From positions 28,026 through 92,025 of the IMG/VR virus record IMGVR_UViG_3300009527_000006: 64,000 bases of DNA. One strand, written 5' to 3'. Positions 14,642-61,915 of the stretch are shown in pieces. The notes under the pieces were generated by a model, which saw only the letters and a program-made list of their open reading frames with translations, was not told the origin of the DNA and made no database searches. This stretch comes from a virus. Numbering within the stretch: position 1 is the stretch's first letter; each line of letters starts with the position of its first letter. The position numbers and the translations under genes are program-made.

Positions 14642-14760
14642 GCACATATTTATATTTTACTTGTCAAAGGTTATATTATTTCGGTTTGGTATAATTATAT
14701 AATAAAGAATCTATGCATAGATATGTCACATAACCATTACATAGATTCTTTATCAATTTA

Positions 14761-16159: not shown

Positions 16160-16727
16160 TTTCGCTGTTGGTAGAAGGTTCTACTTCTTTAGTTAGTTTA
16201 GCATCTCTCACTTCCTCAAGCAACTCTTTAATCATCTTTTTTATTGCCCTAAGCTCAGACAGCATACTTTTTTCATAATCAGTGTTTTTTTCCTTTTTAG
16301 TAGAAGATGACTTATCTTGGGATGCCTCAAATCTATTATATTGAGGCATTGTGAAAGTAGCACCGCCTGAAGGAATATTAGGATTTTGTAAAGGATTATT
16401 ATACTGAGGAGGAGCATAATTCACCGGAGCATTATGATCTACAATCATATTTCCTTTTTCATCTATTCCTACTGGAACGGGAATAAAAGTTGGGGGGGTT
16501 TGCTCAATATTAACATTAAAATTTCCTACAGGATGTGACTGTATTTGCGGAATATGTGCCTGTTGAGGAATATTTCTATTAGAGCTTATAAATTTTTTCG
16601 GTGACACGTCATGGGTTCCCATAATATTATTAAGTTCACTTCTACGACTATTACTAAACAGTCTTTTCATTTCTTGTGAAGTAGAATGTGCTAATTTAGC
16701 CAAATCCATCATATCATCAGTTTGCAT
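16140..16727 (-). CDS. hypothetical P/Q-rich protein
   Basis: 195-aa ORF with TAAATA box 6 nt upstream. Confidence 0.55.
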   Translation of the reverse strand: MQTDDMMDLAKLAHSTSQEMKRLFSNSRRSELNNIMGTHDVSPKKFISSNRNIPQQAHIPQIQSHPVGNFNVNIEQTPPTFIPVPVGIDEKGNMIVDHNAPVNYAPPQYNNPLQNPNIPSGGATFTMPQYNRFEASQDKSSSTKKEKNTDYEKSMLSELRAIKKMIKELLEEVRDAKLTKEVEPSTNSENDIQDQ

Positions 16728-16756
16728 GGAGATTATTTATAAGTTAATATTAATAT

Positions 16757-16800: not shown

Positions 16801-17754
16801 TTAGATATTAACATCGTCATCATCATCATCATCCAAAATAAAGTCATTAAGACCATCGTCATCACCATCATCATTATCAACAACTCTATTCTGTGTTTGA
16901 GAGCGAGAATTTGTCGAGCTATTAACAGATTCATTGGCAATAGGACCATCCTCCCCAAACCAATACTGGTCAATGAGAGATTTGAGTTCGTCTTCAGACT
17001 TTACCGCAGGAACTAATTCCAAAAGATTGTGAACTGAATTTTCAATCCTCTCGTAATCAGAAGGTGACAAATTATCAACTGCTTTACTGTCAGCAAATTT
17101 TGAAGTAGAATAATTATTCCAATCAGCCTTTGTAGTAACACGGACAATCAGCGACCTTCCTTTAGGTGAAAGATCAAATGCCTTAATTCCTACATCATCT
17201 CCACCTAAAACTTCTTCATCAATAAGTTTCGCTAAATCACTCTTAATTTCACCAGTTTTCTTGTCTATACCAGCAGAATATTTAAGGACAACTACTGTTC
17301 CTATTTTTTGTTGTGCATCAGGATCATCGCCTTCCACTTTGTGCAAGAAGGCATTTACCAATTCATGACGCTGTGGAATCAATTTGTAACTACGCTTCAT
17401 AGCATCTTCATCACCACTCTTTTTGGCTTCACTAAAAAGCTTCCATTGTAGTTTGTTGATGTAATCATTTTTTGCTTGAGTAGGATCTGCATCTGATAGA
17501 GATCTTCCTAGATAAATGTATTCAGAAGGAGTTGTCAACGTCTCAAACCCAATATCTTTATAGTTTACAAAAGTTTGATCATTTCCATCTGAATCTGTGG
17601 AACGCAAAAGTCTTACATAGTATTTGCAATTTTTCTTGAATTTCAAGATTCTTGGATCAGAATTTCCAGACCCTCCACTTTTTTCCTTTTTAAGCTTTTC
17701 TGCTTTTGAATTTCTAATTTTTTCTAATGTTTCTTCTAATGTTGGTTTTCTCAT
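16801..17754 (-). CDS. single-stranded DNA-binding protein (gp32-like)
   Basis: 'DPRILKF..VRLL', 'AFDLSPKG', 'WNNYSTSKF', very acidic C-terminal tail. Confidence 0.8.
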   Translation of the reverse strand: MRKPTLEETLEKIRNSKAEKLKKEKSGGSGNSDPRILKFKKNCKYYVRLLRSTDSDGNDQTFVNYKDIGFETLTTPSEYIYLGRSLSDADPTQAKNDYINKLQWKLFSEAKKSGDEDAMKRSYKLIPQRHELVNAFLHKVEGDDPDAQQKIGTVVVLKYSAGIDKKTGEIKSDLAKLIDEEVLGGDDVGIKAFDLSPKGRSLIVRVTTKADWNNYSTSKFADSKAVDNLSPSDYERIENSVHNLLELVPAVKSEDELKSLIDQYWFGEDGPIANESVNSSTNSRSQTQNRVVDNDDGDDDGLNDFILDDDDDDDVNI

Positions 17755-18888: not shown

Positions 18889-18973
18889 AATAATAGAATA
18901 CAGCACATAATTCAGAAGTCAAGCGCTAAATTCAATCATTTAGATATTTTGAAGACACTACTAAATCACAAGA

Positions 18974-19062
18974 GGCGAACAAAACGGATGCAGACAACGC
19001 TCTATAAGTTGTTTGTCACATTCATAGTCTTTTATTCGCGTGTCTGATCCGAAGCGTTCGGG
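18974..19062 (+). repeat. attC site 1 (type A)
   Basis: GGCGAAC AAAA CGGAT(G)CAGACA(A)CGC...GCG TGTCTG ATCCG AAGC GTTCGGG; two extrahelical bases 6 bp apart. Confidence 0.88.
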
Positions 19063-19088
19063 CAATACGCATCCACACAAAATCACGC

Positions 19089-19529
19089 ATGTATAATAGA
19101 CCGTCTAATTCTGAAGTTGCGGAAATTACTGGATACAATCTTCCTATAGAAGAAATCTCAGAATTTCCCACAGCTAAACAGCAACAAGAAGGAGGTTATA
19201 TTTTGAAGTATATTGGCCGCATCTCAGATACTTGTGATACCTTCTTGAAAACTGCACATGGTAAGGTAGTTGCTATAATATTGCTTATCCATGGAATCAT
19301 CGGATTTGCTAGAGATGCATTTGATGGTGCAACATACATCTATAATGCATCTGCTCCTATGCTTGAAAGGATTGAGACTTTTGTATTTTCTCATAAGAAC
19401 CAAGAAGTCTCTCCCGAATACCTAGTATTGATCCCAAAAGAAACGCACCTGACACTGCCCGTAAAAGATTGGGCTGATTTTCCGGCAGGAACCCAATTTG
19501 CGCCAGCCAGTAGCATAGATTACACATAG
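19089..19529 (+). CDS. cassette 1 forward ORF, membrane-anchored hypothetical
   Basis: Starts ~30 nt after the GTT core; hydrophobic 'VVAIILLIHGIIGF'. Confidence 0.6.
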   Translation: MYNRPSNSEVAEITGYNLPIEEISEFPTAKQQQEGGYILKYIGRISDTCDTFLKTAHGKVVAIILLIHGIIGFARDAFDGATYIYNASAPMLERIETFVFSHKNQEVSPEYLVLIPKETHLTLPVKDWADFPAGTQFAPASSIDYT

Positions 19530-19608
19530 CCAACGATCCAAAATATATAAATGCAAATATTTCACAACAAACCCATACTTTATTCAAATAATTATATTTA
19601 TTAGACAT
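19357..19608 (-). CDS. cassette 1 reverse ORF, small 2-TM protein
   Basis: TATAAATA (19615-19622) 6 nt before ATG; two hydrophobic segments; overlaps the forward ORF. Confidence 0.45.
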   Translation of the reverse strand: MSNKYNYLNKVWVCCEIFAFIYFGSLAMCNLCYWLAQIGFLPENQPNLLRAVSGAFLLGSILGIRERLLGSYEKIQKSQSFQA

Positions 19609-19644
19609 TTTACCTATTTATAAAGACTTTAGACTAAAACAAGA

Positions 19645-19734
19645 CCCGAACAAAGAAACTGGAGACAACAGCTCAGCATAGTTATTCTCCTATATTAGTT
19701 CTGTGTTCGCTGTGTCTCAGTTTAGACGTTCGCC
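19645..19734 (+). repeat. attC site 2 (type B)
   Basis: CCCGAAC AAAG AAACT(G)GAGACA(A)CAGC...GCTG TGTCTC AGTTT AGAC GTTCGCC. Confidence 0.88.
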
Positions 19735-19758
19735 TAACAACACACAGCCTCTACTACA

Positions 19759-20031
19759 ATGTATAAAACTCAGCCTAAATATCGGGCCATCATTCGTTTC
19801 TCCTTGGATAAGGATGAGAGTTCAAAGTTTCGCAACTCTGTTATTAGAAAACTTAGAAAAGCTAAATTCACCAACACAAATAAGACTGGTTCTTGGGAGA
19901 CTCCATCCGCAGATTTATCTATTATTCAGTCATTAGTCTGCACCGTTATGAACGAACTAGGTAAAGTAACGAATGACGACGGAAAGCCCGTAACATTGGA
20001 CCATATGTGGATGTGCATAGATAAAGTTTAA
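19759..20031 (+). CDS. cassette 2 forward ORF, basic 90-aa hypothetical
   Basis: Starts ~30 nt after GTT; stop overlaps the reverse-gene stop (TTAA). Confidence 0.6.
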   Translation: MYKTQPKYRAIIRFSLDKDESSKFRNSVIRKLRKAKFTNTNKTGSWETPSADLSIIQSLVCTVMNELGKVTNDDGKPVTLDHMWMCIDKV

Positions 20032-20198
20032 TCTTCTTCGTTCCACCTAGGGTCATCATCTGACCATTCATTCCATCCAGATTCGATTTCGTCTGAGTCT
20101 GAATTGATAACTATTTTTGTTTTAGATTCAGTATGACACCCACAGTTGCCACATACGCCGCTAATAACGACTTCTATAGGTTGAGAATTATTTTTCAT
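20028..20198 (-). CDS. cassette 2 reverse ORF, 56-aa acidic CxxC peptide (not in ORF track)
   Basis: MKNNSQPIEVVISGVCGNCGCHTES...; ATAAATA at 20206-20212 upstream. Confidence 0.55.
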   Translation of the reverse strand: MKNNSQPIEVVISGVCGNCGCHTESKTKIVINSDSDEIESGWNEWSDDDPRWNEED

Positions 20199-20236
20199 AA
20201 TCAGCTATTTATTGGCAGCTCTTGCTATAAACAAGA

Positions 20237-20325
20237 GGCGAACAAAACGGATGCAGACAACGCTCTATAAGTTTTATGTCACATTCAGAGTTTAGTATTC
20301 GCGTGTCTGATCCGAGACGTTCGTC
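20237..20325 (+). repeat. attC site 3 (type A)
   Basis: Arms near-identical to attC1; ends GTTCGTC. Confidence 0.88.
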
Positions 20326-20912
20326 TTATGAAATGCCACCCAGTGAGTCTGCGCTTTCTTGCCGCTACGGTGGCCGTAGAGCGGGCGTTCTGGCGTGAGT
20401 GCCAGCACTTCGCGGAGCGGGATTTCAGCCTCGCACCATTTGAAGATCATCGTTCCATTCACTTTCAGGACACGGAAGCATTCAGCGAATCCCGCCCGCA
20501 GGTCGTCGCGCCATGTCGCATCCAGAAGCCCGAAGTCGAAGGCGATGCGTCCCGTTGCCCCGGCTCCTTTATGGAAGTGCGGCGGATCGAATACCACATG
20601 CCAGAACGACTCATCAGGGAACGGCATGTTTCGGAAGTCCACCACCATATCAGGCGCGACGGTTTTCGGGGTGCGCCCGATGGTTCCCGGCGTTCCCACG
20701 TCGATGATTCGCGTGCCTTGGCGTTTGTCCACATACAGGGCGCGGTCATCCTGTTTATCGAACCAGAACATTCTGGTTGAGCAGCACGCATCCAATACCG
20801 GAGGCAAAGACGAACAAGTCGCTGCATGCAACCCGCTTTCTGCGTGCTGTTGGCGCGTTAATGTGAAGAGGTCATCCATAGGTGTATCGGTGTATTGTGT
20901 CAGCGGGTGCAT
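20292..20912 (-). CDS. cassette 3: class I SAM-dependent (probably DNA adenine) methyltransferase, GC-rich
   Basis: 'VLDACCSTRMFWFDK', 'DFRNMPFPDESF..VVFDPPH', 'ECFRVLK..FKW'; start lies inside attC4 and stop inside attC3. Confidence 0.85.
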   Translation of the reverse strand: MHPLTQYTDTPMDDLFTLTRQQHAESGLHAATCSSLPPVLDACCSTRMFWFDKQDDRALYVDKRQGTRIIDVGTPGTIGRTPKTVAPDMVVDFRNMPFPDESFWHVVFDPPHFHKGAGATGRIAFDFGLLDATWRDDLRAGFAECFRVLKVNGTMIFKWCEAEIPLREVLALTPERPLYGHRSGKKAQTHWVAFHKTNVSDQTREY

Positions 20913-20928
20913 GAGCTAGGCGTTCGCC
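20809..20928 (+). repeat. attC site 4 (type C, canonical geometry)
   Basis: GACGAAC AAGTC GCT(G)CATGCA(A)CCCGCT...AGCGGG TGCATG AGC TAGGC GTTCGCC. Confidence 0.92.
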
Positions 20929-20937
20929 TAAAAACCA

Positions 20938-21192
20938 ATGCACTCATCACAAACTAATTCGCAGATGATAATCGCGCACATGCTAGCCAATGATAACGGA
21001 GCCATTTTTCATTTTGAGGACTATAGATTCAATGTTCGTCCTGAAGATCGAGTCACTTCCAGCAATTGGCCTAGTGGTATAACATTGCACATTAGACTTT
21101 CTAGCACAGGGCTGAGCGCAGCTTCTTACGAGAACGAGACAGTGCTCGGTGAATATGTGGATGAAAGAGGAACTCCCATTTTGCCTTATTAG
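20938..21192 (+). CDS. cassette 4 forward ORF, 84-aa hypothetical
   Basis: Starts ~10 nt after the R' box; stop overlaps the reverse-gene stop. Confidence 0.55.
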   Translation: MHSSQTNSQMIIAHMLANDNGAIFHFEDYRFNVRPEDRVTSSNWPSGITLHIRLSSTGLSAASYENETVLGEYVDERGTPILPY

Positions 21193-21428
21193 GAATTATT
21201 ACTTGGATCATTCGGAATTGCATGGCCGAATCTCAGCACTTCACCATTGTCATATAGATAGGCCATTCCACGAATTCCAAAAGGACCATTATACTTACCT
21301 TTCTCATTCTGTATTTTTATGTTCTCGTGCATAGTCCATCTTCGCCAGATTCCAATAGCTTCATCATACGGAAGTGCCTCTGGATCTGGGTATTTGGTTA
21401 AGTCTATTGGGTTGTCTAAATTTAACAT
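21189..21428 (-). CDS. cassette 4 reverse ORF, ~79-aa hypothetical
   Basis: TAAGTA box (21438-21443) upstream of ATG 21428. Confidence 0.6.
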   Translation of the reverse strand: MLNLDNPIDLTKYPDPEALPYDEAIGIWRRWTMHENIKIQNEKGKYNGPFGIRGMAYLYDNGEVLRFGHAIPNDPSNNS

Positions 21429-21468
21429 ATTCAAAGCTACTTATTCGTAGTCAAATGCTAAAACAAGA

Positions 21469-21558
21469 GGCGAACAAAGAAACTGGAGACAACAGCTCAG
21501 CATAGCTATTCTCCTATATTAGTTCTGTGTTCGCTGTGTCTCAGTTTAGATGTTCGCC
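21469..21558 (+). repeat. attC site 5 (type B)
   Basis: Nearly identical to attC2; GGCGAAC...GTTCGCC. Confidence 0.88.
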
Positions 21559-21573
21559 CAACCTCACCACACC

Positions 21574-21759
21574 ATGTCTATTATAAAGAAACCTAGTTCG
21601 TGCGTATTTTGCAGATCTGCACTGATTAAAGGTCCGATTAAGAGAGATCGTAATTTAAATGAAACTATTGAAATGAAGAGTGTCGTTTATATTTGTGAGC
21701 AATGTAATTTTGTTCACGAATTTAATATTCATACTACTAAAAAATCTAAGATGAAGTAG
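21574..21759 (+). CDS. cassette 5 forward ORF, zinc-ribbon protein
   Basis: CVFC...CEQC motif pair; AC-rich leader. Confidence 0.65.
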   Translation: MSIIKKPSSCVFCRSALIKGPIKRDRNLNETIEMKSVVYICEQCNFVHEFNIHTTKKSKMK

Positions 21760-21910
21760 TAGACACGAAACATGCAAGCCCATCACATTGAGCATTCCAC
21801 ATTTCATCCAGAATTCTATCATTATTTTCCTGTTCTTCTTTGGAAAGTCTCATCCAATGACACTGCTCCACTTCTAACCATTCACGTATCTTTGCTTTTA
21901 TCCATTGCAT
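21746..21910 (-). CDS. cassette 5 reverse ORF, 54 aa (not in ORF track)
   Basis: MQWIKAKIREWLEVEQCHW...; TAAGTA box 21920-21925 upstream. Confidence 0.55.
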   Translation of the reverse strand: MQWIKAKIREWLEVEQCHWMRLSKEEQENNDRILDEMWNAQCDGLACFVSTTSS

Positions 21911-21949
21911 AGTAGTCAATACTTATGAAGCTAATAAACAGAAACAAGA

Positions 21950-22038
21950 GGCGAACAAAACGGATGCAGACAACGCTCTATAAGTTTTATGTCACATTCA
22001 TAATTTTATATTCGCGTGTCTGATCCGAGACGTTCGGG
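21950..22038 (+). repeat. attC site 6 (type A)
   Basis: Arms identical to attC3; ends GTTCGGG. Confidence 0.88.
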
Positions 22039-22194
22039 TAAAACAGAACATAAACACCACAATGAATGAATCTACGTTAGTTGATTGCGCTAAATGGTTA
22101 TATGAAAAGCAGCAAGAGAACCTAAAAGCCGGAAAGAATCTACTTTGGCAGCCACATATAATAACCGTTCTTTTAAACTTACAAAAATCTAAAG

Positions 22195-23421
22195 TCATAC
22201 TTTTAAGATATAAACTCTCGATTTTTTGTTAAATTCCTGCTTCACAGACGGGCTAACCAAAGTCGTTTCCGACAATGGTGAACTCCCATCTCCACAGGCT
22301 TGAATTCCCGAAGAACTTTCGGTATAAATTTGTTTCAGATTCAAACTCGCATTTAAATCTCTATCTATTTTCATATCACACATTTTACATTCAAATACTC
22401 GGTCTGTCAACTTCAAATCTGAATTTTTCCATCCGCAACATGAACATAATTTAGAACTGGCGTAGAAAGTATCTGCGAAGACAACTTTTCTATTATTCCA
22501 TTTCGCTTTATATTCAATTTGGCGACGAAATTCATAAAGTCCTACGTCACTGATAGCCTGAGCCAAACAGTGATTTTTCAACATATTGCTTACTTTCAAA
22601 TCTTCCAACACAATTACATTGTTTTTCTGTATTATGTTAGAAGTGATTCTATGTAAGCAATCTTTACGAATATTTGATATGTGATAATGTAATTTTGCTA
22701 ACTTTTGTTTTGCTTTTCCATAATTTTTACTTCCTTTTTTCTTTCTTGATAATTGTTTTTGTTTGCGTTTTAGTCTCTTGAGATTTTTCTTTAATGCTTT
22801 TGGATTTTCATAAGTTGTCCCATCTGAGCAAGTAGCTAAAGTTTTAATACCTAAATCAATTCCTACTACCTCATTCTTGGCGTTAGAATGCTCTCTGTCA
22901 GGTGTCTCTACTTGAACTGATACAAACCACTTACCCGCACGTTTCGAGACTGTAGCAGACAGTATTTTACAATCTGTTGGGATGTAATCTTTCTCGGATA
23001 ATTTGAGTTTGTCGATTCGTGGTAGCTTAATGTAATCAGATTCAACTGAAATCGCGCCGTCTAGTCTGAAGGATTGCTTTTCGTTTTTCTTAGATTTAAA
23101 TTTTGGAAATCCTTTCTTACCTTTAACTTTCTTTTTACAACGAGTGAAGAAATTTTGAAATGCTTTATCACAATCTCTTAACGCATTTTGTGGAGAAGTC
23201 TTGCTTGAATTATACATCCAAGGAACATCTGTCTGTTTTAGCTTGTTTAATTCTCTATGAATCTCAATAGCATTTTGAATTTTCTCTTTCTTATCAAATT
23301 GTTCTTTCTTTTTAGCTAATGCCCAATTATATGCCCATCTAGCGCAACCAATATGCTGTAATAACAAGGTTTGTTGCTTGTTATTTACATCTAGCTGAAC
23401 TTTATAGGCGCGGAGAATCAT
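22195..23421 (-). CDS. tnpB: RNA-guided endonuclease TnpB
   Basis: HTH_OrfB N-terminus, RuvC GIDLG / VLEDL / DRDLNAS, zinc finger CSCC..CKMC; all catalytic residues present. Confidence 0.95.
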   Translation of the reverse strand: MILRAYKVQLDVNNKQQTLLLQHIGCARWAYNWALAKKKEQFDKKEKIQNAIEIHRELNKLKQTDVPWMYNSSKTSPQNALRDCDKAFQNFFTRCKKKVKGKKGFPKFKSKKNEKQSFRLDGAISVESDYIKLPRIDKLKLSEKDYIPTDCKILSATVSKRAGKWFVSVQVETPDREHSNAKNEVVGIDLGIKTLATCSDGTTYENPKALKKNLKRLKRKQKQLSRKKKGSKNYGKAKQKLAKLHYHISNIRKDCLHRITSNIIQKNNVIVLEDLKVSNMLKNHCLAQAISDVGLYEFRRQIEYKAKWNNRKVVFADTFYASSKLCSCCGWKNSDLKLTDRVFECKMCDMKIDRDLNASLNLKQIYTESSSGIQACGDGSSPLSETTLVSPSVKQEFNKKSRVYILKV

Positions 23422-24283
23422 TTTAATCTTTCTAAACAAATATCATAATACTCTTTTTCTTTTTCGATGCCGATAAACTGACGATTGAGATTTTTGGCGG
23501 CAACCAGAGTTGTTCCCGAACCAGCAAAAGGATCGAACACCAAATCCTCTTTATTTGAGATAGACTTCACCAAGTCTTCCATCATATTCAACGGTTTTTC
23601 ACATGGATGTTTGTCTTTTCTTTGCGAGACTATTTCATATTCAATTACATCTTCAAATGAAGATAGCGATAACGAATCAAATTTTCGTTTGGATAATTTA
23701 ATACCTAAATCTCCTCTAATTTGGGAAGAAATTTTGGAGATGGAAAGCATCTACCACATTCCCAATTTGATACTTGACCACCATTATTAACGTTTCCATA
23801 AGCACCCAATATTTCAGTAAGCTCTTTTACCGATACCCCCTTAGAAATGCGGGCATTCTTAATGTCATTTGGATAAGAATCTTGTGAAAAATAAATTATT
23901 CTTTCTGATGCTGGATATGGTCGTCTAAGGGAATTTTTATTACACTTATTTTTCCAACCCTCACTCCCCTTATTTGGAAAAGTTTTCTTCCACACAATTT
24001 CAGATTGGAAATTGAAATATTGATTTATCAGGACGGCTAAAAATGGAGCCAATGATGGCTTACAAAAAACGTAACCACTACAAGTATTTTTCATCTTCGG
24101 TTTAAGAATTTTGAAAAAATAATCAAACCATTTTAAAAATTCAGTATCGTTATCATGTTCATTGTCCCAAGTGTGCTTTTTAACATTGTGATAAGGTGGA
24201 TCGGTGACAAGGATATCCACGCTTCCATCTGGAATGTCCTTCATCAATTCTAAACAGTCGCCATGCCAAATTTCTTGTTTCAT
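23418..24283 (-). pseudogene. N6/N4 DNA methyltransferase (beta class) with inserted XRE HTH, frameshifted
   Basis: 'GDCLELMKDIPDGSVD..TDPPY' in 23705-24283; 'HPCEKP..DPFAGSGTT..IGIE' in 23418-23750; one extra T at 23707-23709 joins them (EEILGIKL). Confidence 0.85.
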
Positions 24284-25311
24284 TCCATCGCCTCCTTTTC
24301 TTTCTTTTTACGATTCTGTGAGCTAATCATACCCAATCCTTCTCTAATTAGATACAGGCGACCAGTCGAAGTTTTTAACTCTTTTGCTACGCCTCTCCAA
24401 GTTTGATGTTTATCAAACAAATCGTGCAGTTGTTTTACTGTAATATCTGAACGCTTTTTCCGTAAAATTTGCTGAGATAGACACTCTAAATATAATTCAT
24501 ACTTTCTATCCAAATACACTTTAGCGTTTGAGTATATTGGTCTTAATATGTTTTGAACTAACTCGACCCCCGCCGAAGATATGCAGCAAGTTTCTGAATC
24601 TCCCTCTCCATATTTTGATAGGATTTTTGCGCGACATTTGCTATACGAAAGAATATACTCTTGAAATTTCTCAATAACAAGCCTATTTCCAACAAGATTA
24701 ATTGTCCACACCCAAGATTTTTTATATTTGGGTTCAAGCGTTTTAGAAATGCAGCCATCACCGTCAAATATGCCTCGCCAAAAATGACAGTGTAAATCCT
24801 TTGGAATTAAATTTAACGGAGGAATAAAGCTAAAAGATTTTCTCGGTAAAATACCAAATTTAGCCAAATCATTGCATATTTTTCTGTTACCAATTACAAT
24901 TCGACACGACTCAAATATTTTACTATTATCACCCCCTTCAAAAGAGGGCGAACTTCTACATATTTTAATTGGATGCGCCGAACGGCAAAATTTCTTAAAT
25001 TTTTCTAAGTGCAACAAATCTGACTTTTTTAAACCTATATTCAATCCTCCATAATCGGTTACGTTGCCGTCGGCGGCAATGAATCCAAGCCAATAAGCCT
25101 TATCTTCTGTGTCAATTTTTTCAAAAATAGAATCGTCAATAGTATATTTAGAGTTATTTTTAATTTTGATACCCCTTTTTTTGGCTTCTCTGGTGCAGCA
25201 TTCGCTACTTAATCCGTAAACAGCCGCCGCCCTTTGTGCAGAATCCCCGTTTACATATAGATTAATCATTCCGTCCTTTTCTTCTTGTGTAATAGTGCGT
25301 CTCATATACAT
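24280..25311 (-). CDS. free-standing LAGLIDADG homing endonuclease
   Basis: 'KAYWLGFIAADG' and 'HFWRGIFDGDG' motifs; HTH-like termini. Confidence 0.9.
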   Translation of the reverse strand: MYMRRTITQEEKDGMINLYVNGDSAQRAAAVYGLSSECCTREAKKRGIKIKNNSKYTIDDSIFEKIDTEDKAYWLGFIAADGNVTDYGGLNIGLKKSDLLHLEKFKKFCRSAHPIKICRSSPSFEGGDNSKIFESCRIVIGNRKICNDLAKFGILPRKSFSFIPPLNLIPKDLHCHFWRGIFDGDGCISKTLEPKYKKSWVWTINLVGNRLVIEKFQEYILSYSKCRAKILSKYGEGDSETCCISSAGVELVQNILRPIYSNAKVYLDRKYELYLECLSQQILRKKRSDITVKQLHDLFDKHQTWRGVAKELKTSTGRLYLIREGLGMISSQNRKKKEKEAME

Positions 25312-25327
25312 ATATTTACACTAAAAA

Positions 25328-25888
25328 TCACTCTTTTTCACAAAAATCTGATAAAACTTCATCATCGGGATAGATTTCTGTAGTCACCTCTTCCACCTTT
25401 TCAATTCTAACTCCATAGGAATTAAAATAAGACAAAAGATAATTAAAACAAAATCTTGATAATCTATCTTTATGCTCAATTAAGACTACATCAATTTCTT
25501 TCTTTTCTACTAACTCAAAAAGTTTCTGCAATTTCTTGCGATTGTCGTTCATTCCTGAACCAACTTCATCAAAAACAGCAACAATAGAATAACCACGCTT
25601 CAATGCCTCTGTAGTCATTCTGCCGACTTGTCTTTCTAAATCACCTTTAGTCTTCTGTTCATGTGAACTAACGCGACAATAGATAGCCACACGCTTACCA
25701 TCTGTTACTTTAACAGGTTCTACATAGATTCCCGCCAATTTCTCAATATCGGCTCTGTAATAGCGTCTATGACCACCTTTTGTATGGAATGGCGTTAATT
25801 TGCCTTCTCGCTCCCAATTTCTAAGAGTTTCGTCGGAAACGCCTAAAATGGACGCAGCATCACTAATTGATAGAATCTTTTTATCCAT
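25328..25888 (-). CDS. tnpA: IS607 transposase TnpA (MerR HTH + serine resolvase), C-terminally disrupted
   Basis: 'TLRNWEREG..TKGGHRRY', 'IYCRVSS..DLERQ', 'EHKDRLSRF'; usual C-terminal helix missing. Confidence 0.9.
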   Translation of the reverse strand: MDKKILSISDAASILGVSDETLRNWEREGKLTPFHTKGGHRRYYRADIEKLAGIYVEPVKVTDGKRVAIYCRVSSHEQKTKGDLERQVGRMTTEALKRGYSIVAVFDEVGSGMNDNRKKLQKLFELVEKKEIDVVLIEHKDRLSRFCFNYLLSYFNSYGVRIEKVEEVTTEIYPDDEVLSDFCEKE

Positions 25889-26057
25889 TTTTGTCTATCA
25901 ATCCTTTCTGTTGAAACAACCTAAACCATTCGTCATAGATTCGTTGAAATTCCTCTACGGTTGGAACTTCATCTAATTCAAACGGAATATCATGGATAAC
26001 TCCATCATCGGTTTCAAATTCTGTTGCTGTAACTCTTGTAATCATTTTTGGCTTCAT
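25881..26057 (-). CDS. 58-aa ORF at IS left end (not in ORF track)
   Basis: MKPKMITRVTATEFETDDG...VPTVEEFQRIYDEW; overlaps the tnpA start; TAAATA box upstream. Confidence 0.6.
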   Translation of the reverse strand: MKPKMITRVTATEFETDDGVIHDIPFELDEVPTVEEFQRIYDEWFRLFQQKGLIDKNG

Positions 26058-26248
26058 ATATATTTACACTAAAAGTTTAGATTTTCTACGAAAAAAGTGA
26101 AAATATTTTAACTTTCTTTAGATATTTTAGATTATCGGGCAACTGTTGTCAACCCTCGGAAAGTTGTGGTTACTATTTGTTTCCTGTTTTGCGATATTAT
26201 CCACTGCTCTGATCACCGAGTTTATAAAACAAGATGGGTATAAGTTGT

Positions 26249-26503
26249 TTAAGTCCAGCCTAAATAATGAACACACAAAAGCATCGGAACCACCCCCATC
26301 ACAAACAACAAAACACATAAAATAATCAACCATCCTAATGCCATGAAGAGGCATTCTACAAAAGCCTTAAACTCACCATCAAACCCGAACAAAACGGATG
26401 CAGGCAACACCTCTGGGCTGTCTGTCGTATTATTCATAGTATTTTCGTTCGGTGTGCCTGATCCGAGACGTTCGCCTTCTGCTAATTTAGTTTGTTTTTT
26501 CAT
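26249..26503 (-). CDS. cassette 6 reverse ORF, membrane peptide read through attC7
   Basis: ATAAATA 26511-26517 before ATG 26503; second in-frame ATG (26437) inside attC7; hydrophobic C-half. Confidence 0.5.
   Translation of the reverse strand: MKKQTKLAEGERLGSGTPNENTMNNTTDSPEVLPASVLFGFDGEFKAFVECLFMALGWLIILCVLLFVMGVVPMLLCVHYLGWT
26384..26476 (+). repeat. attC site 7 (type A variant)
   Basis: CCCGAAC AAAA CGGAT(G)CAGGCA(A)CACC...GGTG TGCCTG ATCCG AGAC GTTCGCC; compensatory changes relative to attC1. Confidence 0.88.
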
Positions 26504-26671
26504 CAAAAGCTATTTATGAAATAATATTATTAATTCAACCAGCATAATAATAACCATGTTTAACTACCTAAAGACTAGCTTGTGTCAATTTTGTAAAGGA
26601 ACCACTGACCCATCCACAAAGAAAGAGATTTAAACTCTTCATTTGAGATAAAGTGTGTTATTTATATTTTT

Positions 26672-26763
26672 GAGGCTCTATAAGTTTTATGTCACATTCA
26701 TAGCTTAGAACTCACTATGTCTCAGCGTAAACTTACCATTCATGTCTGCGCTAGGCGTTTGCC
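26672..26763 (+). repeat. decayed attC site 8
   Basis: Type A loop 'GCTCTATAAGTTTTATGTCACATTCATA' with left arm deleted; right arm TGTCTGCGCTAGGCGTTTGCC. Confidence 0.65.
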
Positions 26764-26782
26764 TTAACTGCATAATGTTCAA

Positions 26783-27109: not shown

Positions 27110-28465
27110 TTAGGTTGTCATAAATTCTTCCATCGAGAATTTCTTTTTCAATATACTTGACCTAGAATCTTCATATGATTGCTCAGTATCTTCTTCTTCA
27201 AAAAATCTCAGTGTGCTATAATCAATATTCAAGTATCCCCCGCCATTGAGAGCACCGTCTCTAGATTTCTTACCCTTAACTAATACTCTGTTAAGTTCAC
27301 GGTCTTCATCTGTTTGTGACATGACTGTAAGATTATCAAAATCGCCTAGCATTGAATATGAACCAGCCATATTATCCAAGTCAGCAGAATTATTTCGATG
27401 TCCGTCTCTATTGAGTTGTGCAGGAGTTAATAGAGGGCATTCAAAAATATAACTGAGCCCTCTTACTTCTTGAGTAATATACTGAAATTCGTCGTGCTTA
27501 GGAACATTGCTTTTTGTAGATTTACATAGAGTAATATAATCCAGTATTATCACCGATGGTTTGAAATTTTTCTTTCTTTCTAATTTTTTAATAAAGGATT
27601 TAATGTTAGTAGGAGTCACTGATTTAGCCGCGAACTCTTTGATTACTAATCTAGAAGTTTTATCAGAAATAAAATCATCCACATACTCTCTATACTCTAA
27701 TAGCCTGTCTCCTATTTCTCCTAGAGCAATACCCGTTAACATACCAGAAATTCTACGAGCATATCTTTTTTCACTCATTTCTAAAGTTATAATTACTACA
27801 TCCTCATTCTGTCTGAGAATGTTAGTTCCAATGTTTCCCACCAAAAGTGATTTTCCGACATTAGTGGAGCCAGCTACGCCATATATTGCTCGCCCTTCTT
27901 TAAACATTCCTCCACCAAATGCTTCATCCACTATCTTATATCCGGTGCTTAGAAAAACATCCTTTTCAGTTAAAATAGATTCTACCCTACTTCTTTCGGC
28001 AAAATATTCCAACCCTAGATTATCTACTAATGAAATATTAGATATAGTTTCTTGTTCAGTTTGAAAATCATCTAAATCTATTTCTTGTTTTTCTGTCTTA
28101 TCATCAATAGCCTTTTCTAGAAGATTTTCTGTTTTTCTCTGCTTTATAAAATACTCTGCATTAGCAAGCAATTCGTCTTCATTACATTCATCCGCAATAT
28201 TTTCATTTTTTATAAGATCAATCGCTTTTTTAAGATGTTCTTTATTTTTAGTAGTATTAAACCGGGTTTTTAATTCTGTAAAATTAGGAACTGCGGACCT
28301 TTCTACATAAAAATCTTTAATAGTCTGTGCTATTGCAGAGAAGTTTTCGTTTTTGAAAATATCTGCTCCAATATATTCTATGCAAGAACCTAGTAATATT
28401 CCATCTTTTTTGAGAAGATTCTTCATAAGAATCTTCTCAAAAAAATCTAAATCAATTTTGCTCAT
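27110..28465 (-). CDS. DnaB-like replicative helicase (gp41)
   Basis: Walker A 'GSTNVGKS', 'ITLEMSE', 'IILDYI', 'AQLNR', 'KSRDG'. Confidence 0.92.
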   Translation of the reverse strand: MSKIDLDFFEKILMKNLLKKDGILLGSCIEYIGADIFKNENFSAIAQTIKDFYVERSAVPNFTELKTRFNTTKNKEHLKKAIDLIKNENIADECNEDELLANAEYFIKQRKTENLLEKAIDDKTEKQEIDLDDFQTEQETISNISLVDNLGLEYFAERSRVESILTEKDVFLSTGYKIVDEAFGGGMFKEGRAIYGVAGSTNVGKSLLVGNIGTNILRQNEDVVIITLEMSEKRYARRISGMLTGIALGEIGDRLLEYREYVDDFISDKTSRLVIKEFAAKSVTPTNIKSFIKKLERKKNFKPSVIILDYITLCKSTKSNVPKHDEFQYITQEVRGLSYIFECPLLTPAQLNRDGHRNNSADLDNMAGSYSMLGDFDNLTVMSQTDEDRELNRVLVKGKKSRDGALNGGGYLNIDYSTLRFFEEEDTEQSYEDSRSSILKKKFSMEEFMTT

Positions 28466-28474
28466 ATGTATTTG

Positions 28475-28768
28475 CTAGACTATAGCATATGTAACCTCTA
28501 ACAGTCTAGAAGAATCTTTAGATAGGTATTTCATTTCTACCCATTTTTCAAAATAATCTCCGGTAACTTGATCTTCCAGTTCGGTAGGCTGGTCAGTATA
28601 AAAATTACCGCTTTTATATAATTTATATAATTGTCCAGCAGTGACTACTAATTTTGCCCCATTAGCATCTACTGTTTCTATAGCAGGGGTAGATTCATCA
28701 ATATGAAAATATTGAATCTTAGGTTTGTCTACAAACATCGAAGTCTTTTTTATTGTGACACGAATCAT
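28475..28768 (-). CDS. hypothetical protein
   Basis: 97-aa ORF coupled to uvsX (4-nt overlap). Confidence 0.55.
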   Translation of the reverse strand: MIRVTIKKTSMFVDKPKIQYFHIDESTPAIETVDANGAKLVVTAGQLYKLYKSGNFYTDQPTELEDQVTGDYFEKWVEMKYLSKDSSRLLEVTYAIV

Positions 28769-29784
28769 ACGTTATCTGGATTTAATGCAAACATCTTATT
28801 GCACATAGTTTTGAAAGACGCATCTTCTACTAGTGATTGCATAAGATTATCAGTTTCTTCTAGCTCTTTGCGTCTAAAAACTTTGTCATTGCCAATGAGT
28901 TTATACCATCCTTGCTTTTCTGAATAGATATGTTTAGTTTCAAGTGCAAGGTCAAATATTCCAGAGTATTTAGAAATTCCATCATCAAAACTAACGGTTA
29001 CTGGAAAATCGGATTTTTCTCTGACATATCTAGAAAATTTTGATTTCAATACAAAATCAAATCCAGTCAATTCAGAATCAACCTTCTTTTGTCGTTTTCC
29101 AATATTCCACAACGTATGTCCAGCATATTCTGCCCCTCTTCCTCCAGAAGCCTTTTCTTCAGGAAACATGTCCATTGTTTGGTAGCTATGATTAATTACT
29201 ATACAAGTAATGCCCTTGAAATTTATCTGTCCATTAGCAATTCGGAATACAGATTTCAACGCCTTTGCTCTAGTGAAATCAGCTTTATCATTTTCGTTCT
29301 TTGCATCCTCTACTTCTTTCGCACTGGCTAACATACCAATACTATCGACGCAAATAAGAACCTTATCACCGACTTCTATATCAGTAACTAAATTAGCCAA
29401 ATCACTCTTCCACTGTTCTACAGTAAAAATAGGTCTTCTGTCAAAATTTTCACCCGGACGAATATCTATTCCTACTCCTTCAAAATATGAATTAGGTGAG
29501 CCGAACTCCGAATCATAAAAAATGATGAGATTATCTTGGTCCTTATACTTCCTTTGGAACGACTTCATTGCTTGAATCATTAGATTAGTTTTGAAGTGCT
29601 TTGGTGGAGCAGCAATCATAACTATCCCAGCCGGAAGACCTTTATCGAAAGATCCTGATATTGCTAAATTAAGAATAGGAACATCAAAAGGTATAAAATT
29701 TTCAGATTCCCAATAATTAGATTTCTCTAATATTTTTTTATCAATTACAGTATTGGCACGAAGTTTATCAAAAAGTTTTGACAT
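28765..29784 (-). CDS. uvsX: RecA-like recombinase
   Basis: 'AAPPKHFKT', 'FYDSEFG', 'DSIGMLAS.KEVEDA..ADFTRAK', 'SGGRG'. Confidence 0.93.
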   Translation of the reverse strand: MSKLFDKLRANTVIDKKILEKSNYWESENFIPFDVPILNLAISGSFDKGLPAGIVMIAAPPKHFKTNLMIQAMKSFQRKYKDQDNLIIFYDSEFGSPNSYFEGVGIDIRPGENFDRRPIFTVEQWKSDLANLVTDIEVGDKVLICVDSIGMLASAKEVEDAKNENDKADFTRAKALKSVFRIANGQINFKGITCIVINHSYQTMDMFPEEKASGGRGAEYAGHTLWNIGKRQKKVDSELTGFDFVLKSKFSRYVREKSDFPVTVSFDDGISKYSGIFDLALETKHIYSEKQGWYKLIGNDKVFRRKELEETDNLMQSLVEDASFKTMCNKMFALNPDNV

Positions 29785-30214: not shown

Positions 30215-30520
30215 TTATGCAAGAAAATAATCTTCTTTCTTTAGAGAATCTTGTCTATCATACTCTTGCCTAACACCTATTTTGAAATTCATTACTAAAT
30301 TATCTTTTTCAAATTGCTCTCTTTGAACTGCTTTTATAAGTTTAGTAACATCATTAGAATACAATCTATACAATTCTTGCTTAGAAATCCACCGACCCTC
30401 AGAAAAATCATCAGATATAATTTCTATATCACGATTTTCAAAAACACTCTGATACGATCTATATAATTCAGCAGAGTATTTGTTTTTAATACTTAAAAAT
30501 TTCTGATATAGGTGCTTCAT
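30215..30520 (-). CDS. hypothetical protein
   Basis: 101-aa ORF overlapping the polymerase end. Confidence 0.45.
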   Translation of the reverse strand: MKHLYQKFLSIKNKYSAELYRSYQSVFENRDIEIISDDFSEGRWISKQELYRLYSNDVTKLIKAVQREQFEKDNLVMNFKIGVRQEYDRQDSLKKEDYFLA

Positions 30521-33044
30521 ATTGAAAATCTGGATCTGGTAATTCCCAATTTATTGCTTCATAAATAGGCTTCAGACAGCTATTTACAGATTTATCAAAC
30601 ATAGTTCTATAATCTATAGATAAATTAAATTCTACTGGAAATTTGTCAATAAAAGCAATACCTTCAATACCATATCCATTCTTCTCAACATGAATAAGTT
30701 TTATTTTTTGCCCGTCCTCAATTTTTGCATAAACATTCTGTAAACCATTTTTATCAATAAGAGCATTATAATGCAGTGACCATTTTGCATGTCTTTGGCA
30801 TCCTAATTCAGTATATATACCATCAGAATGTTTCCATTTATGTAAAATTTTCATACTGCTCCTAAGAGCAATTTTATCTATGGCCATACTTTGATAATTA
30901 TTATAAGCATCTACATAAAGCATATCACATTCATTTTTAGAATATCCTGACATGATATTCTTAACAATATTCTTTGCAATGTCCTTAACTTCATCAGAAT
31001 ATATAGATTTGACCAAAGCTATTCCAGAGTATTTTATTTTATTAGTCTTTTTCCCTTCGTTGTTTATTACGTTCAATATATAATGTTTCTTTTTAAGCCA
31101 TATCGCTCTTGTGCAGATGGCCTCTCTCTTAAACTCAATTCTAGGATCTTTGGAATTGAGTTTATTGCGCATCAACTCGCTCAAACGTCCATTCACTGTA
31201 GTAACAATTTGTTTTTCGAATTTAGAAAAATCTTCTGTAAGATTTCCTTCAGAATCAGCTATTTTTAAGTTAGTCAATTTAATAACTTTATCTAAAGAGA
31301 TATACTGGCTATCAGTATCTCCAGCAATAATATGGTCATCATTAGAATTGCAATATTGATTAAGAACCTCATTTATTATTCGTTCACTATTCTTTATGAT
31401 AAACTGACCTGTGGTAGTTATAGAACTGGCACAATCAATATCATACAAGCAGAAAAATCTATTAGCAAAAACACCATAGGTAGAATTTAATAGAATTTTA
31501 TACAAATACTGTTCAGTGTCTAATCTAGCAATAAGGTCATATTCTTTACTTCCACTAGTTTCTAGCTCTAACATTGTGCCCTTAACAAATTTTCTCTTTT
31601 GGTATAAGTCATCAATAAATTTAGAACAAATACTTTTTTCTTTCTGATCAAAAAGAACTCCGCACGATGATATAGACCACCCCTTTTTCGATACGTATTC
31701 TAACAACTGGTCATCTTCCAATTTAATAGTCCTTTCAGAACCATGTAAAAGATGAACTATAGAATGTCCATCATCTGTTTTAGTGACCTGTCCGCGTTTA
31801 CTCTCTGGAGATATATTAAGGGTGATAATAATATTAGGATATAGGCTGTTAATGTCTAAGCTCATGACATTGTCATACATGCCCGGAACAGGGACTTTCA
31901 CATAACCTCCTGCTATTTTTTCTTTTTCAACATCATCGTCAAATCTTGTTAAAAGTATTTTATTTTCTAGATATGCTTGTTTAGCCAATACTCCTGTAAT
32001 AATAGGAACTTTGCTCATTGCTCGGTCAACATTACAGAAACCATAAAATGCAGAGAATTTGGCCACGTCTAAGTATCTTCTTTTATTATCTATAAGAAGC
32101 AGCAGGTGCGTATCCCAAATGTTATAATTAATAAACTTGTTCCAGTTTTTTTCCGAAAGAGATTGCAGAGATTCACCAGAATAGTCTAATTTTCCTTGAC
32201 CTACTTCTAACTTAGAAATAAAATCAAGTGCAAAGCTCTCTTTTTCACCCGGATTATATGTCTTATACAATTGCATATAATCAATGTGTGAAAATCCGCC
32301 AAAAGTGTATTCTTTATACCTTTTCTGAAAGCTGTCCACTACATCTCTTGCATATATGTTATCTACTGGGGATAGTTTTGCAGAAAGACCTTCTTTGAGT
32401 TTTTCCAATCTTCCTACAATATAAGGAACATCAAAGCTAGCAGAGTTCCATCCAACTAAAACATCTGGATAGTTTCGTCTCCAGAACTTGACGAAACTTT
32501 TCAGCAACAACAATTCAGTAGGACAGTAATAGTATTCTATCTTCTCAGAATCTACACCTTTAATATCATCAAATGCGGTCCATTTATCATAAGGTTTTAT
32601 TCCCCATACATAATATTTTTCAGTTTTTGAATCATATATAGTAATGGATGTTATCGGAAATTTACTAGTAATAGGGTCTGGAAATTCATCTGCAATGACC
32701 TCTATGTCAAAATAGAATATACGAAGTTTGTTTTTGGTCAATTCATCTATGCTAGAAGAATGGTATTTCTCTAATAAAAATTGCTGTGTTGGAGGAAGAT
32801 TTAGATAAACCTCCCCACGATAAGATTTTACAAAATTTTTACGCTCTTTTTCGTTGAAGAATTCTCTACGCACCAAACCCTGACCATCAATGCCAAATGC
32901 TTCATCATTTTTACCTTTAGGTGTCTTAATATACAAGAAAGGTCTGAAATTATATTCATATTTTGCAGATTCCTCATTTTCATCATATGCCCATAGATGA
33001 ATTTTGCTATTTTTATGATCGTAGTAACAATTACGGTAAGCCAT
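30486..33044 (-). CDS. family B DNA polymerase (gp43)
   Basis: Exo 'FDIEV', 'GWNSASFDVPY', 'YNIWD'; pol 'SLDINSLYP', 'KILLNSTYG', 'AGDTDS'. Confidence 0.97.
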   Translation of the reverse strand: MAYRNCYYDHKNSKIHLWAYDENEESAKYEYNFRPFLYIKTPKGKNDEAFGIDGQGLVRREFFNEKERKNFVKSYRGEVYLNLPPTQQFLLEKYHSSSIDELTKNKLRIFYFDIEVIADEFPDPITSKFPITSITIYDSKTEKYYVWGIKPYDKWTAFDDIKGVDSEKIEYYYCPTELLLLKSFVKFWRRNYPDVLVGWNSASFDVPYIVGRLEKLKEGLSAKLSPVDNIYARDVVDSFQKRYKEYTFGGFSHIDYMQLYKTYNPGEKESFALDFISKLEVGQGKLDYSGESLQSLSEKNWNKFINYNIWDTHLLLLIDNKRRYLDVAKFSAFYGFCNVDRAMSKVPIITGVLAKQAYLENKILLTRFDDDVEKEKIAGGYVKVPVPGMYDNVMSLDINSLYPNIIITLNISPESKRGQVTKTDDGHSIVHLLHGSERTIKLEDDQLLEYVSKKGWSISSCGVLFDQKEKSICSKFIDDLYQKRKFVKGTMLELETSGSKEYDLIARLDTEQYLYKILLNSTYGVFANRFFCLYDIDCASSITTTGQFIIKNSERIINEVLNQYCNSNDDHIIAGDTDSQYISLDKVIKLTNLKIADSEGNLTEDFSKFEKQIVTTVNGRLSELMRNKLNSKDPRIEFKREAICTRAIWLKKKHYILNVINNEGKKTNKIKYSGIALVKSIYSDEVKDIAKNIVKNIMSGYSKNECDMLYVDAYNNYQSMAIDKIALRSSMKILHKWKHSDGIYTELGCQRHAKWSLHYNALIDKNGLQNVYAKIEDGQKIKLIHVEKNGYGIEGIAFIDKFPVEFNLSIDYRTMFDKSVNSCLKPIYEAINWELPDPDFQYEAPISEIFKY

Positions 33045-61126: not shown

Positions 61127-61907
61127 GTTGAAGAGCTGCTAATGATTTGTCAAGAGCCTCTTGTTTTTTGAGTTCATCATACAATTCCGGGAATTGGTTT
61201 GAAAATATCTCTACATTAAAATCTGCTTTAGGATACATTGTTTTTTCTCTTATTTCAAAAAAATTATTTAATTTAGAACTAGGATTTAGTTGTCCGACAT
61301 TTACAAAATCAAAATCATCTAGTATGACTACCTTTTGCTCGATATAATCACCATAAACATAGTAACAAGAAGTCTGTCCAACTACTTCTGTAAATAGAGC
61401 GCCTGCTGCGGGCGTATTTGGACCCAATGTTTTTAAGTGTCTATTATATGCTGCATATTCTCCTCTGGCACTAAAAGGATGTTTACCGTAGTAATGAGCA
61501 ATAATATCATGCACCCACCTAAGTTTTACATTAAAATCATTGTCGAATAGAGGATGGCCTTGTTTTTCGTAGTTTCCTTCTGGTCCGGGAAGTTCCGCAA
61601 ACACACTTACTTTAGGTTTCTTTTTGCCTGATTTTTTCTGATCATCTATAGATTTTACTAGATGTTTCATTGAGGTATAAGGATCTTTATGAACTGGGTC
61701 AAATTCAAATTTAGAGGATACGAAATCATACTGTCTGCTAAATTTTTTAATTAAATCGTTGAATGCTGGTATAGCTTTGAGGTCAAAACTTTCTGCTAAG
61801 ACATAATTAGCGGCAACTAATCTTTGATATACGCCGCCTTTATAATTTCCTTTAAGGGATAGTTTTTCATAAAGGATATTATTGAAATGTTCAGAGAAAG
61901 ATAGCAT
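61113..61907 (-). CDS. hypothetical late protein
   Basis: 'LRWVHDIIAH..FSARGEYAA..ALFTEVVGQ'; TAAATA 5 nt upstream. Confidence 0.6.
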   Translation of the reverse strand: MLSFSEHFNNILYEKLSLKGNYKGGVYQRLVAANYVLAESFDLKAIPAFNDLIKKFSRQYDFVSSKFEFDPVHKDPYTSMKHLVKSIDDQKKSGKKKPKVSVFAELPGPEGNYEKQGHPLFDNDFNVKLRWVHDIIAHYYGKHPFSARGEYAAYNRHLKTLGPNTPAAGALFTEVVGQTSCYYVYGDYIEQKVVILDDFDFVNVGQLNPSSKLNNFFEIREKTMYPKADFNVEIFSNQFPELYDELKKQEALDKSLAALQPIFL

Positions 61908-61915
61908 GAATTTAT

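Follow-up and report, generated by a model that had tools for sequence, protein, structure and literature searches.

Convergent gene pairs in an integron-type cassette array of a T4-like phage: probably original cassette cargo accompanied by phage-style genes

The subject of this analysis is a stretch of viral DNA of 64,000 nucleotides (nt), here called the window, which corresponds to bases 28026-92025 of the 92-kb IMG/VR virus record IMGVR_UViG_3300009527_000006, a record with an estimated completeness of about 35%. Positions are those of the window. Between 18966 and 26484 the window carries a bona fide integron-type cassette array with seven attC hairpins (r0 to r6) and six cassettes (C1 to C6), and its carrier is a freshwater or groundwater, low-GC, T4-like phage lineage of lytic type. 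An integron cassette normally consists of one promoterless gene and an attC site. Four of the six cassettes (C1, C2, C4 and C5) instead hold two convergent open reading frames (ORFs), one on the plus strand (C1f, C2f, C4f and C5f) and one on the minus strand (C1r, C2r, C4r and C5r). As judged from the sequence, the paired genes are probably both real and are unrelated passengers that did not evolve together, the forward gene being the original cargo of the cassette and the reverse gene one of phage style.

The seven hairpins are about 105 nt each and all lie on the plus strand. Folded as single-stranded DNA, every one of them forms an outer stem of 5 bp between CGAAC (R'') and GTTCG (R'), followed by an unpaired spacer of 4-5 nt, a bulged L stem and a variable closing loop. 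Three sequence types (A, B and the GC-rich r3) share this one architecture through compensatory changes. In an alignment of the types 98% of the cells pair and eight pairs carry compensatory changes, a level of pairing matched by none of 500 shuffles, while controls in which the alignment was slid paired in at most 41% of the cells. Two bulges, a G and an A spaced 6 bp from each other, are on the 5' arm of the plus strand in all three types and fall on the 3' arm of the minus strand, where they read C/T; the extrahelical bases of class 1 attC sites are G/T, and the phage sites differ in this respect. R' reads GTTCG(C/G/T)(C/G) and departs from the canonical GTTRRRY by the C at position 4. The same deviation occurs in most sites of bacterial arrays linked to the integron integrase IntI, some of which read GTTAGGC, so that it appears to be a lineage variant. 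No Rfam family matched the repeats.

A covariance model of the hairpins (R1, scored in bits) was used to score the individual sites. The first site of the array, r0 (18966-19070, type A, 95 bits), has R'' CGAAC at 18976, R' GTTCG at 19056 and no cassette on its left. It is followed by r1 (19637-19742, type B, 97.8 bits), the L stem of which covaries with that of type A, r2 (20229-20333, type A, 102.6 bits), and r3 (20801-20936, 62.8 bits), the GC-rich third type, with the same G/A bulges and a stem reading CATGCA where the others have CAGACA. The remaining sites are r4 (21461-21566, type B, 94 bits), which is 94% identical to r1, r5 (21942-22046, type A, 100 bits) and r6 (26376-26484, 91.6 bits).

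The G|TT points in R' of r0 to r6 are 19056|7, 19728|9, 20319|20, 20922|3, 21552|3, 22032|3 and 26470|1, respectively. The bases that follow G|TT at the start of each cassette complement the R'' of that cassette's own attC: TTCGGG and CCCGAA in C1 and C6, TTCGCC and GGCGAA in C2, C4 and C5, and TTCGTCTT (first bases) and AAGACGAA (own R'') in C3. Such self-complementary ends are as expected if each cassette came in as a circle. Contigs covering parts of the array were found in freshwater and groundwater sequencing runs (X1 to X7), and no RNA run holding the array was among the runs listed. An X3 contig joins 20317 to 20921 and so removes 20318-20920, which is exactly cassette 3 at G|TT; the whole cassette (20320-20922) is missing in this related phage population. 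Only 6 nt at the joint fit either side, and the dissimilarity of r2 and r3 points to a site-specific rather than a homologous deletion. Different sequence follows the GTTCG of r5 in an X3 contig and that of r6 in an X7 contig. The X2, X3 and X5 contigs that carry parts of cassette 1 (19057-19728, plus strand) showed no differences from it, and the X7 contig had 12 differences across 21099-21458. A further X3 joint, from 19723 to 26466, was not used as its shorter side has 21 letters. A crossover on the R'' side, which would make the minus strand the coding strand, was ruled out because all breakpoints were seen at R'. No tyrosine recombinase (PF00589) was found in the 92-kb record, which covers about 35% of the estimated genome, and the phage array was therefore filed as a cluster of attC sites lacking an integron integrase (CALIN). 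Gain and loss of cassettes take place at the canonical G|TT, and the enzyme is presumably an integron integrase of the host that works on the minus strand in its folded form.

The ORF coordinates proposed for C1, C2, C4 and C5 in a preliminary description of this DNA were confirmed, as was the arrangement of forward ORFs that begin just after GTT behind AC-rich leaders and face convergent reverse ORFs. In cassette 1, C1f (19089-19529) encodes 146 amino acids (aa) and has no homologue (an ORFan), and C1r (19357-19608) encodes 83 aa, among which two stretches look hydrophobic by eye. Cassette 2 holds C2f (19759-20031, 90 aa), a member of a conserved family, and C2r (20028-20198, 56 aa), which has a Cys-rich start and an acidic tail. 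The ORFs of cassette 4, C4f (20938-21192, 84 aa) and C4r (21189-21428, 79 aa), are both ORFans, and cassette 5 holds C5f (21574-21759, 61 aa), with a CxxC...CxxC pattern that looks zinc-ribbon-like by eye, and C5r (21746-21910, 54 aa). The paired pattern had been ascribed to five of six cassettes; three clean pairs and one overlapping pair were found among the six. The pairs had been said always to touch or overlap at their 3' ends. The overlaps are tight in C2, C4 and C5 (4, 4 and 14 nt), where 87-90% of the cassette body is taken up by the two ORFs, and the ORFs of C1 overlap by 173 nt. The stops are interlocked in C2 (TTAA, 20028-20031) and in C4 (TTAG, 21189-21192).

Tight 3'-3' abutment is not peculiar to the cassettes, as other convergent gene pairs of this phage are alike, with spacings of +11, -8, -7 and -14 nt at the stops 11021/11033, 13638/13631, 46848/46842 and 61126/61113, respectively. 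The abutting or overlapping stops would then reflect a phage-wide compaction of the genome and not a special coupling device.

Coding capacity was assessed with 4000 dinucleotide shuffles of each cassette body and with a codon log-odds score that contrasts 52 long phage genes with 119 spurious ORFs within them. A pair of ORFs as long as the observed ones or longer turned up in 0%, 0.22%, 0.10% and 0.43% of the shuffles for C1, C2, C4 and C5, respectively, and the forward ORFs taken singly were open with P values of 0.000-0.05 each. True pieces of 60 codons had a mean codon score of +0.17, and spurious ORFs a mean of -0.16 and a maximum of +0.09; absolute scores are rough because the null frames overlap real genes. 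C2r (+0.24), C4r (+0.14) and C5r (+0.18) have phage-typical codon usage, and none of the 119 spurious ORFs scored as high. C1r was weak (-0.04). The forward ORFs C1f, C2f, C4f (weak at +0.01) and C5f (+0.05), together with the start of the forward ORF of cassette 6 (C6f), lie between +0.01 and +0.05 per codon, which exceeds nearly every spurious ORF but is below most true pieces. C1f is uneven, with a coding-like +0.11 over its 5' two-thirds and a spurious-like -0.27 over its last 57 codons. No Pfam or PHROG family was assigned to the small ORFs; C1f, C1r and C4r had no homologue among 5.8 billion proteins, and C4f, C5f, C5r and C2r had no tblastn match in 50,697 phage records. A single-sequence AlphaFold2 model of C4r was poor, with a predicted local distance difference test (pLDDT) score of 44, and says nothing on its fold. 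That most of the ORFs are ORFans and that they are short (54-90 aa) would suit the idea that the cassette DNA is non-coding and the paired frames are open by chance, but this is scarcely credible given the shuffle tests, the filling of 87-90% of the C2, C4 and C5 cassettes and, as described below, the C2f family and a phage motif before five of five reverse ORFs.

The reverse ORFs carry a start motif of phage type. ATAA[AG]TA, which forms the core of the late promoter of T4 (TATAAATA), occurs 6-20 nt before the ATG of about 20 of 103 phage genes outside the array, against a background of 0.29 per kb per strand. It precedes C1r, C2r, C4r, C5r and C6r (the reverse ORF of cassette 6), at -13, -14, -16, -16 and -14, respectively. 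On the minus strand these copies are TATAAATA at 19615-19622 for C1r, with an ATAAATA core, ATAAATA at 20206-20212 for C2r, ATAAGTA at 21438-21444 for C4r, ATAAGTA at 21920-21926 for C5r and ATAAATA at 26511-26517 for C6r. The surroundings of the motif differ between the r1 and r4 cassettes despite the 94% identity of these repeats, so that the motif did not simply travel with the repeat. R'' and the reverse ATG are 38-42 nt apart in four cassettes. The reverse ORFs lie on the strand of all the phage genes around them; between 13.6 and 36 kb every gene is on the minus strand save the forward ORFs of the array. Being co-oriented with the surrounding replication genes, the reverse genes can be expressed by the phage, probably through the motif that each of them carries or else through read-through.

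Before other genes of the record, for example at 16727-16745, 14647-14660 and 61907-61925 of the window, the motif, often as TATAAATA, comes with no Shine-Dalgarno sequence by eye. If ATAA[AG]TA is a late promoter as in T4, those mRNAs would be nearly leaderless.

The forward ORFs follow a different convention, since their ATG lies 15-32 nt after G|TT behind a C/A-rich leader that has no Shine-Dalgarno sequence. The same leaders and the same spacing from G|TT to ATG were found in cassettes of IntI-linked Verrucomicrobiota arrays. Pattern scans detected the attC element of the phage in viral contigs, and the only genomes that held it were metagenome-assembled genomes (MAGs) of Verrucomicrobiota, where R1 detected same-orientation arrays with a spacing of 0.4-1.2 kb. 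About 1.5 kb away from one of these (L034, plus strand of contig C368 of genome G003), the minus strand encodes an integron integrase (TIGR02249, 318 bits). This opposed orientation is the classical integron layout, and it makes the plus strand of the window the canonical coding strand of the cassettes. In the bacterial arrays each cassette is filled by a single forward ORF; examples are ORFs of 342 aa (cassette of 1031 nt), 226 aa (695 nt) and 136 aa (455 nt). The integrase of contig C368 (L043, 69561-70676) gave three separate matches, of which one has a TGA inside it, and may be frameshifted or inactivated in this MAG.

C2f is, among the forward ORFs, the one that is not an ORFan. Seventy-two representative homologous clusters were recovered (E<=1e-3, about 85-100 aa) that share the motifs RVIVRFSLDxD, TGTWE and LDHxWIYID, and in their alignment C2f is full length and retains all invariant and near-invariant residues. 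Its AlphaFold model (pLDDT 91) has a beta-alpha-beta-alpha-beta order and a ferredoxin-like fold, for which Foldseek gave weak matches to Cas2/VapD (E about 5e-3, template modelling (TM) score 0.5-0.6). C2f had no Pfam family, and it would represent a new, unnamed small protein family that on the model is weakly Cas2/VapD-like. Homologues were encoded at seventeen metagenome loci, all in DNA of 50-61% GC, and no C2r-like neighbour was present at any of these; the downstream ORFs were mutually unrelated. At one locus (L049) the homologue, a bacterial one, is alone in a cassette of 456 nt. The ends of this cassette are self-complementary, its leader is AC-rich, and its attC is a related one that shares the G and A bulges. 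This attC starts about 15 nt past the stop of the homologue, which leaves no room for a second gene. From the lone homologue and the unrelated neighbours elsewhere, C2r is an addition of the phage cassette rather than a conserved partner.

These loci bear on the proposal that each pair is a two-component module (toxin and antitoxin, effector and immunity, or protein and antisense regulator) that moves together. The tight abutment of both genes within one excisable cassette would agree with a module, as would the weak likeness of C2f to Cas2/VapD nucleases and the small size and acidic tail of C2r. The seventeen loci without a C2r-like neighbour and the homologue alone in a classical cassette stand against it, tight abutment is general in this phage, and convergent orientation is not usual for toxin-antitoxin pairs. 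We consider a module of this kind improbable, and the toxin/immunity role raised in the preliminary description, like an effector/partner role, found no support, as C2f has no conserved partner at the loci of its homologues.

A further alternative is that only the reverse genes function and the forward ORFs are silent, slowly decaying relics of captured cassettes. It draws on the weak forward codon scores, on forward ORFs that have neither the phage motif nor a recognisable plus-strand promoter, and on their antisense orientation to the direction of transcription of the whole region. Every forward ORF is nevertheless still open in AT-rich DNA at the P values given above, the scores are well above the spurious mean, and C2f in particular has kept its length and its conserved residues. 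Decay of the forward ORFs is a doubtful explanation.

C1, C2, C4 and C5 share a composite layout which along the plus strand runs from the AC-rich leader through the forward gene, the tail-to-tail reverse gene and the late-promoter-like ATAA[AG]TA to the attC, 38-42 nt from the reverse ATG. Under the reading of two real and unrelated passengers, classical host-type cassettes most likely settled in an AT-rich phage lineage, where their hairpin loops and bodies turned AT-rich. Four of them would there have taken up a gene of phage style, complete with a start motif, in the space from the cargo to the attC. The forward genes would be the original cassette cargo, retained intact.

Several points weigh against this reading. 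The integrase was not found in the 92 kb, or about 35% of the estimated genome, and no promoter was recognised on the plus strand, where sigma-70-like matches were at chance level. The codon scores place the forward ORFs only within the top 2-6% of the spurious ORFs, and in the 173-nt overlap of C1 neither frame scores well (forward -0.27, reverse -0.09). Conservation of the reverse ORFs cannot be shown because all ORFs other than C2f and a methyltransferase are ORFans. The host assignment is drawn only from the attC family and the methyltransferase cassette, cassette 6 departs from the paired pattern, and this reading does not account for the entry of a reverse gene and its motif into the space between cargo and attC, four times over.

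The preliminary description had also suggested that the two strands are used in different contexts. This gains indirect support, as the pairs fit two sets of conventions. In its stronger form the forward genes would be read from the cassette promoter of a bacterial integron and the reverse genes from the phage late-type motif, convergence without a terminator would let transcription of one gene silence the other, and a shuttle would trade cassettes with host integrons. The forward leaders resemble bacterial cassette leaders, the reverse ORFs carry the phage motif and in three cases phage codon usage, and a scan for terminator-like sites between the paired ORFs gave none above chance. The attC family is common to IntI-linked host arrays, cassettes are polymorphic among related phages, and cassette 3 has relatives in Verrucomicrobiota genomes, all of which would be consistent with such a switch. 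Against it, the AT-rich cassettes C1, C2, C4 and C5 were not found in the 401 Verrucomicrobiota genomes searched, in which only the methyltransferase cassette and the attC were matched, and a search of 301 of those genomes gave no member of the C2f family. The forward ORFs, at 30-44% GC, look long resident in AT-rich genomes, a residence that would need selection there. We consider such a switch unlikely. Also rather unlikely is the combined proposal of cassettes with mutually exclusive states set by convergent transcription and of a phage-borne shuttle that works through the host integrase during infection; if it were true, the shuttle would carry phage-made genes into Verrucomicrobiota integrons and host cassettes into the phage pan-genome.

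Cassettes 3 and 6 do not hold clean pairs. The sole gene of cassette 3 encodes a DNA methyltransferase (20292-20912, minus strand; phrog_954, 7.7e-61) of 57% GC. The start of this gene lies within r3, the attC of the cassette, and its stop within the adjacent r2. Some Verrucomicrobiota genomes hold related DNA segments that are 69-88% identical.

Cassette 6 is split by an IS607-like insertion (22167-26145, minus strand), identified with Pfam. The left part of the cassette (22033-22166, plus strand) holds the start of a forward ORF at 22062, and its TTCGGGT complements R'' of r6. The insertion encodes, all on the minus strand and assigned with Pfam, TnpB (22195-23439), an N6_N4 DNA methylase (23705-24283), a LAGLIDADG ORF (24280-25311) and a serine recombinase with a MerR-type helix-turn-helix (25328-25888); it also carries a 110-aa ORF. 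Its ends were placed at 22164-22167 and 26145-26152 from the X3 and X7 contigs, with the X3 sequence diverging after 22166. Past these ends the contigs mismatch the other flank, and the contigs of relatives do not join 22166 to about 26152, so that a joined C6 ORF is unsupported. The 3' piece (26146-26325) has a spurious-like codon score of -0.17, and the reconstructed C6 pair of the preliminary description was accordingly set aside. C6r (26249-26503, minus strand, 84 aa) has a hydrophobic C-terminus, a codon score of about 0 and an uncertain status; it starts right of r6, outside the cassette, and its frame reads through the attC. An X3 contig skips 24325-25397, which corresponds to a copy of the element without the LAGLIDADG ORF, and both element ends run into other sequences in X3, where the element is at another site.

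To the right of r6, a decayed cassette with a 25-aa forward ORF (26566-26643) occupies 26475-26782. It contains a degenerate attC remnant (26675-26770, plus strand; repeat families D3 and D9) with a partial type A loop (26675-26713) and an R'-like GGCGTTTGCC (26755-26764), which R1 did not detect. This looks like an eroded end of the array beside phage genes. A block A(A/C)ACAAGA(G/C)(G/C) is located left of R'' at all phage attC sites save the GC-rich r3 and r6 (18964-18975, 19635-19646, 20227-20238, 21459-21470 and 21940-21951). On the minus strand it forms a T-rich run right behind the hairpin, which might serve as a terminator tail ahead of the motif of the next reverse gene; the bacterial copies are less T-rich.

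The carrier was judged a distant T4-like phage from the gene content of the window. Phage marker genes include a gp32-like single-stranded DNA-binding protein (16801-17754), a DnaB/gp41-like helicase (27110-28465), UvsX (28765-29784) and a gp43-type polymerase (30486-33044), and the array is positioned in the phage replication module. The GC content of the phage genome is about 32%. Searches of viral contigs with a 224-aa ORF or gp41 as the query, of metagenome contigs with the gp32-like ORF and of phage records by megablast gave no close relative of the phage. C4r and C1f were also present on other contigs, of up to 126 kb.

Arrays of the same attC family were also seen in GC-rich IMG/VR contigs classed as viral (L009 1225-5673, L036 1286-3553, which equals L039, L040 8083-9760 and L035 821-2469). 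PHROG matches on GC-rich contigs included a primase (L037), a DnaE-like polymerase (L040) and a polynucleotide kinase within a cassette (L020). These contigs may belong to prophages or to mobile elements of another kind, or may be pieces of bacterial DNA.

The phage cassettes resemble those of the sedentary chromosomal arrays of Verrucomicrobiota (L027, L033, L034 and L024) in attC architecture and family, in their AC-rich leaders and in the rule of orientation. A single forward ORF fills the Verrucomicrobiota cassettes, which are 50-56% GC, whereas the phage cassettes are 35-41% GC with AT-rich loops and have the reverse gene in addition, placed after the cargo and ahead of the attC. In known cassettes with two genes, the two are usually conserved partners that form an operon and run in the same direction. 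Cassettes with two ORFs, such as toxin-antitoxin cassettes, and cassette-borne promoters have been described in bacteria (Ghaly et al. 2021, PMC8618304). Unlike these, the genes of the phage cassettes converge, the partners are unconserved and the internal promoter-like motif is the phage's own.

CALINs in virulent phages, with methyltransferase cassettes among them, have been published, and occasionally more than one ORF between adjacent attC sites was noted there (Qi et al. 2023, PMC9892861). The present array is similar in that it lacks intI, belongs to a phage of lytic type and includes a DNA methyltransferase cassette. It differs in that its attC family was traced to IntI-linked Verrucomicrobiota arrays, in the gain and loss of cassettes among natural phage variants, and in its systematic convergent pairs with a phage motif at a fixed distance from attC, a layout that the published work does not describe. 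The PeSL mobile regulatory cassettes of a T4-type phage are reported to consist of small accessory ORFs flanked by a repeated element of stem-loop and promoter that could shuffle modules (Arbiol et al. 2010, PMC2839356). Stem-loop repeats around small accessory ORFs in a T4-type phage are common to both systems. The stem-loops are attC sites here and the motif is late-type and not early, and unlike the homologous shuffling of PeSLs the deletion of cassette 3 joins the dissimilar r2 and r3 at G|TT. A systematic convergent design in which one cassette follows two sets of expression conventions appears to be new, as do the link of a phage array to the Verrucomicrobiota attC family and the finding of a T4-like phage population whose cassettes are gained and lost in nature.

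If confirmed, these results would mean that phages remodel cassettes, beyond carrying stray attC sites, and that one cassette can house genes suited to two systems of expression. On the same condition, a cassette exchange system would be common to Verrucomicrobiota of freshwater and their phages. The array therefore bears on how cassettes are built and move between hosts, and its phage ORFans are candidates for function, for example in defence or counter-defence.

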